IMG/VR virus record: IMGVR_UViG_2778261162_000003
From: a virus
Lineage: Duplodnaviria > Heunggongvirae > Uroviricota > Caudoviricetes
Reading direction: 5' to 3' (one strand)
Length of the DNA stretch: 54,013 nt
Numbering within the stretch: position 1 is the first letter of the stretch; each line of letters opens with the position of its first letter. A program made the translations under genes and the position numbers. Under the pieces are notes generated by a model that was not told where the DNA came from, did not search any database, and saw only the letters and a list, made by a program, of their open reading frames with translations. Below, in pieces: positions 1 through 1,103 of this stretch.

Positions 1-530
1 GTCTGGCGTTCGTGGAGCGCAGCGAAAACGTGATCCTGCTGGGACCTCCTGGTGTAGGAAAAACACATCTGGCCATAGCTCTTGGCGTGAAAGCGGTGGA
101 TGCGGGACATCGGGTACTGTTTATGCCACTGGACAGACTGATCGCGACACTGATGAAAGCGAAACAGGAAAACCGGCTGGAGCGTCAGCTACAGCAACTG
201 AGTTATGCCCGGGTGTTGATCCTGGATGAAATAGGCTATCTGCCGATGAACAGAGAGGAAGCCAGCCTGTTCTTCCGGCTACTGAACCGTCGATATGAAA
301 AAGCGAGCATCATACTGACGTCAAACAAGGGGTTCGCAGACTGGGGAGAAATGTTCGGAGATCACGTGCTGGCAACAGCGATACTGGATCGGTTGCTACA
401 TCACTCAACCACGCTGAATATCAAAGGAGAGAGTTACCGGTTAAAAGAGAAACGTAAAGCTGGAGTGCTGACCAAAAACACAACGCCAATCAGTGATGAT
501 GAAATGGTGCAAAGCGGACAGCATCAGTAA
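1..530 (+). CDS. istB: IS21-family transposition helper ATPase IstB, C-terminal part; reading frame is open to the window edge
   Basis: Walker [12 protein letters not shown] and Walker B LILDEIGY motifs; frame open from position 1; stop at 528-530. Confidence 0.85.
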
Positions 531-650
531 CGAAAGTATTTAGCGGGCATGAAAATGGCAAATAACGGTCAAACATCGTGGCGTTGACAACGTTTTTATC
601 CGGAAAATGCTGTCTGGCTTTTTTGATTTCAGAATTAGCCTGACGGGCAA
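1..650 (+). mobile_element. Right end of an IS21-family insertion sequence; exact terminus not determined
   Basis: istB 3' end at the window start; terminal inverted repeat expected within about 100 bp after the istB stop; a lambda-like small ORF on the minus strand runs into the istB 3' end. Confidence 0.55.
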
Positions 651-760
651 TGCTGCGAAGGGCGTTTTCTTGCTGAGGTGTCATTGAACAAGCCCCATGT
701 CGGCAAGCATAAGCACACAGAATATGAAGCCCGCTGCCAGAAAAATGCATTCAGTGGTTG

Positions 761-952
761 TCATACCTGGTCTCTCTCATCTGCTTCTGCTTTCGCCACC
801 ATCATTTCCAGCTTTTGTGAAAGGGATGTGGCTAACGTATGAAATTCTTCGTCTGTTTCTACTGGTATTGGCACAAACCTGACTCCAATTTGAGCAAGGC
901 TATGTGCCATCTCAATACTCGTTCTTAACTCAACAGGAGATGCTTTGTGCAT
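761..952 (-). CDS. Small lambda left-arm protein (orf63-like)
   Basis: 63-aa ORF immediately downstream of exo in the leftward operon; recalled resemblance to lambda orf63 (MHKASPVELRTSIEMAHSLAQIG...). Confidence 0.45.
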   Translation of the reverse strand: MHKASPVELRTSIEMAHSLAQIGVRFVPIPVETDEEFHTLATSLSQKLEMMVAKAEADERDQV

Positions 953-1103
953 ACCGCCTCCCGTTTATTATTTATCTTCTCAGCCAGCCGCTGTGCTTTC
1001 AGGGGATTTCTGATAACAGAAAGGCCGGGAAATACCCAGCCTCGCTTTGTAACGGAGTAGACGAAAGTGATCGCGCCTACCCGGATATTATCGTGAGGAT
1101 GCG

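Follow-up and report, generated by a model that had tools for sequence, protein, structure and literature searches.

The window, by which we mean the whole stretch of DNA analysed here (54,013 nucleotides), is the entire contig NTPL01000026.1 (54013 bp) of the draft assembly GCA_002463795.1, and was located by its partial IstB product. It begins within an IS21 element that sits in a lambdoid prophage, and it contains the right end of that prophage. The features discussed below are as follows.

1-589, plus strand: 3' part of IS21 (positions 1542-2130 of the 2130-bp element; the remainder is outside the contig)
3-530, plus strand: istB 3' fragment (last 175 codons of the 265-aa helper ATPase and the stop codon)
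531-589, plus strand: IS21 right terminal region (59 bp, non-coding)
590-593, no strand: right-hand copy of the 4-bp target duplication ACGT, from comparison with the uninterrupted sequence
590-684, minus strand: 5' fragment of the 71-aa phrog_303 gene (31 codons and 2 nt; start codon at 684)
761-952, minus strand: intact DUF1382 gene, lambda orf63-like (PF07131, E = 7.7e-31)
925-1107, minus strand: intact DUF1317 gene, lambda orf60a-like (PF07026, E = 2.2e-38)
1104-1784, minus strand: intact exo, lambda exonuclease family (PF09588 YqaJ), which marks the early-left operon
46512-46558, plus strand: attR core, 47 bp identical to the argU 3' end (attL core); right prophage end

The IS21 end and the interrupted phage gene

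The first 589 nucleotides of the window are 100% identical to the 3' 589 bp of full-length IS21 copies found in many E. coli genomes and plasmids. A perfect match of this length to a known element would far exceed chance expectation. The istB reading frame is open from the window start to a stop codon at 528-530, and the fragment at 3-530 matches both NCBIfam NF038214 (IS21 helper ATPase), at 219 bits with a cut-off of 200, and Pfam PF01695 (IstB_IS21), at 223 bits and E = 4e-66. An AAA+ helper ATPase is therefore encoded at the 3' end of the element, as is characteristic of the IS21 family. In the reference copy (L002 2460-4589), which is 2130 bp in length and encodes an istA of 390 aa and an istB of 265 aa, the segment of the window corresponds to L002 4001-4589. 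This copy has the ends TGTCAGCGCCA... and ...TGGCGTTGACA and is flanked by the 4-bp duplication TGAT. The 390-aa IstA of the identical full-length copies matches NF033546 at 285 bits. A second common variant of IS21 has a length of 2131 bp, is 99.2% identical, and carries the 4-bp duplication CAGC at its flanks. NCBI PGAP annotates the element in E. coli as 'IS21-like element IS21 family'.

The IS terminus reads ...GGCGTTGACA at position 589, and the junction with the phage DNA, ...GGCGTTGACA|ACGTTTTTATCC, falls between 589 and 590. The right terminal repeat, R1, occupies 579-589, and its reverse complement, TGTCAACGCCA, matches the left end of the element, TGTCAGCGCCA, at 10 of 11 positions. 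The inner repeat R2 is tentatively placed at 539-549 (8/11 matches), and at the left end of IS21 the L2 repeat sits 42 bp inward of L1. The inverted repeats of the form 5'-TG...CA-3' and the L1/L2 and R1/R2 motifs of the IS21 family are thus all present, R2 tentatively. The hexamer TTGACA at the extreme end (584-589) is the known right-end -35 box of IS21; this box and the architecture of the terminal repeats have been described (PMC10122671). At the junction, no consensus match was found for an outward hybrid promoter composed of the terminal TTGACA and the flanking phage DNA. An earlier note, made from the letters of the window, had proposed an IS21-family element in the left arm of a prophage and had suggested that its terminal inverted repeat be sought in 531-700. 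The identity over 1-589 bears out the element, and both R1 and the junction fall within that range.

All phage and prophage relatives start to align at exactly position 590. The gene at this position is a 71-aa gene of phrog_303, a family of unknown function, placed downstream of exo and beyond the DUF1317 and DUF1382 genes. Its intact form is WP_000188859.1 in the prophage of E. coli EC11 (L003 6880-7095), and IS21 splits it after codon 31. Other annotations place the start at 750, for a product of 93 aa. The 71-aa product has no Pfam or NCBIfam hit, and the name 'cell division protein ZapA', which some records give to this gene, was dropped for lack of Pfam or NCBIfam support. The earlier note had described a small ORF on the minus strand with a start near 682 that was interrupted downstream of exo. 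This ORF is real, with its start codon at 684; it does reach the IS, as the note had it, but it enters the 59-bp non-coding right end and not istB.

In lambda, the counterpart of this location is the DNA between exo and xis, which is dispensable for plaque formation.

The right junction appears to be private to this strain. Neither the insertion site nor the junction is present in any of the 5426 complete E. coli genomes compared, and an exact 37-mer spanning the junction gave 0 matches in species-representative genome contigs and metagenome contigs. The chimeric ORFs across the right junction (86 aa and 64 aa) are absent from protein records because they were never called as genes.

The contig edge and the reciprocal junction

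The record of contig NTPL01000026.1 carries nothing upstream of window position 1. Taken by itself, the window shows one IS end and no left arm, and no public sequence joins the right junction to upstream DNA. Such a picture would be expected from an IS21-associated deletion that removed everything from the 71-aa gene to attL or beyond, with the loss of int, xis, and attL. A draft short-read contig that ends inside a repeat also raises the question of whether an IS21 fragment was wrongly joined to phage DNA during assembly. The location of the junction at exactly the IS21 terminus speaks against such a misjoin.

The position of the contig edge is instructive. The window starts at IS21 position 1542, which is exactly 55 bases before a single-nucleotide difference at position 1597, and a partner contig of the same assembly, NTPL01000100.1 (described below), ends at IS21 position 173, one base before a difference at position 174. 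These two SNPs separate the two common IS21 variants. The breaks are consistent with short-read assembly at k=55 of a genome with at least two copies of IS21. The break of the window inside istB is an assembly effect and not a biological loss: the window ends there because short-read assembly was unable to resolve the interior of IS21, which is repeated in the genome. A window that starts inside an IS can be a mere draft-contig edge. An unrelated metagenome contig (ENA ERZ2916451 NODE_46575, L005) begins one base from the IS21 position at which the window starts, suggesting that the SNP at 1597 between co-occurring variants repeatedly breaks short-read assemblies.

As another cause of the contig break, we considered a 590-bp deleted IS21 remnant known from F-type plasmids. 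This was rejected because neither end-point of its deletion coincides with IS position 1542. The same internally deleted remnant is carried by many F-type or ColV-like plasmids of E. coli (L007 642-1231, L008 3001-3590). It consists of approximately 430 bp of the left end and approximately 160 bp of the right end, retains both termini, and adjoins a truncated DinB/UmuC-family gene.

The left junction was recovered through the protein that it was predicted to encode. We modelled a simple insertion with each target duplication from 3 to 8 bp and derived the chimeric ORF that it would produce. Exact look-ups covered eight sequences, of which one, the intact 71-aa protein, served as the control and the other seven were candidates representing duplications of 4, 5, 7, and 8 bp. 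Only the ATG-start candidate for a 4-bp duplication exists in the protein collection (61 aa, WP_096941401.1); the junction ORFs for duplications of 5, 7, and 8 bp were not present there. WP_096941401.1 is found on one contig only, NTPL01000100.1 (1436 bp), which also comes from assembly GCA_002463795.1. Missing junctions can thus be recovered by predicting the chimeric ORF that they encode.

Contig NTPL01000100.1 opens with 173 bp of the IS21 left end (100% identity), which includes the first 24 codons of the istA of this copy (L009 1-72). Next come ACGT, the other 40 codons of the 71-aa gene, and genes of the TraR/DksA and DUF4222 types, beyond which lie a xis-like HTH_17 ORF and then intD codons 1-80. 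The phage part of the contig is 100% identical to the EC11 prophage (L003 7004 down to 5797). The uninterrupted target in EC11 reads CATCG-ACGT-TTTTATCC (L003 6996-7012), and the left junction on NTPL01000100.1 reads ...CATCGACGT|TGTCAGCGCC. ACGT is therefore found on both sides of IS21 across NTPL01000026.1 and NTPL01000100.1, in agreement with the 4-bp target duplication of the family. The xis-like ORF (L009 913-1284 = L003 6265-5894, minus strand) has 123 codons and overlaps the start of intD by approximately 230 nt in a different frame. Of these codons, NCBI PGAP annotates the first 22 alone, which it labels an incomplete pseudogene.

Because the reciprocal junction and ACGT are found on NTPL01000100.1, IS21 appears to be a simple insertion with the target duplication ACGT, and the left arm appears to have been displaced and not deleted. 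By the same comparison, the int-attL end would have been moved 2.13 kb away by IS21, with no phage DNA deleted. The exact phage continuation and the 4-bp duplication at the reciprocal junction make a deletion highly improbable, and the 3' part of int, attL, and argU were also found, on contig NTPL01000001.1; this argument holds unless the contigs derive from a second prophage copy. An assembly artefact is less probable still, to the point of being negligible, because a second contig independently bears the complementary junction with the 4-bp duplication and a chimeric join would not reproduce the signature of transposition. The view of the earlier note that the IS had truncated the region downstream of exo is contradicted by the same contig, which holds the missing part of the ORF and the genes beyond it next to ACGT.

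A further reading is that the two IS21 ends belong to different copies with other DNA between them, either through replicon fusion with a plasmid or through an inversion. IS21 is known to form cointegrates from tandem copies via a 'cointegrase' form of IstA (PMC10122671), and a cointegrate would give identical outer junctions and the same 4-bp duplication. In addition, IS21 is present at least twice in this genome, its interior is unassembled here, and it is frequent on E. coli plasmids, which account for 2978 of 6687 matches. Nothing positive points to this reading, a simple insertion is the more economical explanation of one matching pair of junctions, and an inversion would leave no matching duplication at the two junctions. 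We therefore consider two separate copies improbable, and the more specific case of a plasmid or other large segment lying inside the prophage between directly repeated IS21 copies marginally less probable again. If a replicon fusion did occur, the early-left operon of a DLP12-type prophage would contain foreign DNA.

The second insertion and the state of the prophage

The last 55 bp of NTPL01000100.1 (L009 1382-1436) begin with GTAAGCG and match the ends of IS66-family elements. When the 278-aa remainder of int, starting from an internal Met, was looked up, it was found at the end of NTPL01000001.1, another contig of assembly GCA_002463795.1. The end of this contig (L021 1-2233) holds an IS66-family tnpC, cut by the contig end, followed by tnpB, tnpA, and the IS end ...CGCTTAC. 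Past the IS end lie GATAAAAG, the 3' part of intD with the Phage_integrase catalytic domain, the 47-bp att core, the tRNA-Arg(UCU) gene, which is argU, and fimZ. Among them, the products of these three genes match PF01527, PF05717, and PF03050 with zf-IS66 and LZ_Tnp_IS66. The 8-bp sequence GATAAAAG also precedes the IS end on NTPL01000100.1 and is therefore duplicated at the two flanks; a target duplication of 8 bp is characteristic of IS66 (PMC6778807). With tnpA/tnpB/tnpC, the ends GTAAGCG.../...CGCTTAC, and this duplication, all the hallmarks of the IS66 family are present. intD is thus split after codon 80 by an IS66-family (IS679-like) element, outside the window.

Seven complete E. coli genomes carry an IS66-family element at the identical position of intD, in a copy that departs from the present one at 2 of the 55 assembled end bases. 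In E100341 (NZ_CM128606.1), the element in intD is IS679-like with a length of 2704 bp, as measured on L010, and the duplication is also GATAAAAG. The published length of IS679 is reportedly 2704 bp. The shared site could reflect either an old common insertion or a preferred target site. The complete genome of 13P460A, which is the closest by the right flank, has an intact left arm with neither IS21 nor the IS66-family element.

The attR core lies between ompT and envY, which is the DLP12 site, and the homology with the free phage Turner ends at 46558. The same 47-bp core is present at L021 3169-3215, adjoining tRNA-Arg(UCU). The core is thus repeated at both ends of the prophage and overlaps the 3' end of a tRNA gene, as in prophages of the argU/DLP12 type. 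A functional tyrosine integrase gene beside attL, which is the other mark of an argU-type lambdoid prophage, is missing here, with intD being split. Over window 590-16182, the EC11 prophage is 99.98% identical, and phage Turner is 99.9% identical over window 590-3000.

The earlier note had regarded the structural genes as intact. However, the J homologue (32852-36330) has a 1-nt deletion in a G run near 34172 (CCGGGGGC -> CCGGGGC), which splits J into ORFs of 450 aa and 698 aa; the base is retained, and J is intact, in phage Turner and in the complete genomes that match best. The change may be a genuine frameshift private to this strain, or it may be a sequencing error in a homopolymer. A separate 1-nt deletion, located outside any long homopolymer, occurs at approximately 50337 in nfrA (48437-51429, minus strand) when compared with 13P460A, in which nfrA is intact (990 aa). 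This phage-N4 receptor gene is thereby broken into overlapping ORFs of 621 aa and 391 aa.

The prophage amounts to approximately 52.95 kb when approximately 48.1 kb of phage DNA, 2.13 kb of IS21, and approximately 2.70 kb of the IS66-family element are added together. The packaging limit of lambda is approximately 51 kb. A prophage of approximately 53 kb would exceed a head of lambda size.

Proposed explanation and comparison with known systems

The observations are very probably explained by a simple IS21 insertion in the phrog_303 gene of an argU prophage, accompanied by a separate IS66-family insertion in intD. According to this proposal, the host would be the E. coli of draft assembly GCA_002463795.1, and IS21 would have transposed into the 71-aa accessory phrog_303 gene of a full-length lambdoid prophage of approximately 48 kb at argU, duplicating ACGT and splitting the gene after codon 31. 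As a result, the distance from exo to the TraR/DksA and DUF4222 genes, the xis-like ORF, int, and attL would have grown by 2.13 kb. The separate insertion in intD would have detached the catalytic domain of Int from the N-terminal 80 residues. Put together from the three contigs, the left end would run in the order fimZ, argU/attL, the intD 3' part, the IS66-family element, the intD 5' part, the xis-like ORF, the DUF4222 gene, the TraR/DksA gene, the 3' part of the 71-aa gene, IS21, the 5' part of the 71-aa gene, the DUF1382 gene, the DUF1317 gene, and exo, from which it would continue onward in the window. The links between the contigs rest on the matching junctions and target duplications, not on reads. 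Two independent simple transpositions are shown, each with both of its junctions and with the target duplication typical of its family, and attL and attR are both present. Both IS elements are presumably complete; the assembled parts are the ends in one case and most of the element in the other, and 1368 bp from the middle of the IS21 copy and approximately 420 bp of the IS66-family element were not assembled adjoining those ends. We infer that there is no extra DNA between the IS21 ends.

With its first 80 residues cut off from the catalytic domain, Int is predicted to be inactive, and the prophage would therefore be unable to excise unless assisted in trans; a related integrase encoded at another locus of the genome could give such assistance. 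The earlier note had envisaged that int, xis, and attL were either displaced beyond the IS or lost, and that the IS could lock the prophage in place. Displacement is what the partner contigs NTPL01000100.1 and NTPL01000001.1 reveal, and loss is not. As evidence against its view, the note had also named an intact int-xis-attL immediately beyond a complete IS with a flanking target duplication, with excision still possible; of these, the duplication and the left arm were found, but int is interrupted. An immobile prophage, which the note had thought possible, is probable, but IS21 is not the cause; the split of intD by the IS66-family element is. By itself, the interruption of an accessory gene by 2.13 kb would not be enough to lock the prophage. 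IS21 may also have a polar effect, blocking expression from the early-left promoter of the genes that lie past the insertion. The prophage as assembled would also lack a working J tail protein, and the combination of its size and the J defect would be expected to prevent the formation of infective particles.

IS21 is the prototype of its family and was first described on plasmid R68.45. The copy in the prophage resembles it in the ends TGT...ACA, the L1/L2 and R1/R2 motifs, the -35 sequence TTGACA, and the 4-bp duplication, and there is no substantive difference; its last 589 bp are in the window and its first 173 bp are on the partner contig. DLP12 of K-12, a defective lambdoid prophage at argU, occupies the same attachment site: attL is formed by the 3' end of argU, and attR lies between ompT and envY. 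DLP12 and the present prophage share intD, emrE, ybcK, ybcN, ninE, ybcO, rusA, quuD, essD, rrrD, rzpD, and ompT, and DLP12 is likewise being eroded by IS elements. In contrast to DLP12, the present prophage is of full length (approximately 48 kb) and carries cI, O, P, the Red genes, and the genes for head and tail, and the IS insertions are different, namely IS21 in the phrog_303 gene and the IS66-family element in intD. This is a well-known IS at a private site in a well-known type of prophage, and its in-place decay is of an ordinary and already known kind. The locus offers a snapshot of the early decay of a full-length DLP12-type prophage, in which IS21, an IS66-family element in int, and a J frameshift are found in one strain.

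The intD::IS679-like insertion of E100341 has the same position in intD and the same 8-bp duplication, GATAAAAG, as that of the present prophage. It differs at 2 of the 55 bp of the assembled IS end, and the identity over the IS part and the flank is 98.4%. In contrast to the present prophage, that of E100341 is a deleted remnant without IS21.

Phage Turner (PP925837.1), a free phage of 48,223 bp, is collinear with window 590-46558 at 90-99.7% identity by segment and shares ompT, the attP core, and the left arm with the prophage. Unlike the prophage, it has no IS, and its int and J are intact. A few mosaic segments differ between the two, for example window 9992-11152 and portions of J and of the tail-fibre region. 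Just inside attR, the prophage contains ompT (window 45136-46089), which encodes an outer-membrane protease. This gene is also present in phage Turner beside attP (L006 6860-7813), and ompT is therefore phage cargo in these phages. Window 9992-11152, which is absent from phage Turner, carries a gene with a BstA_C domain, called from 10209. This gene, in the nin-side region, is likely to be anti-phage abortive-infection cargo.
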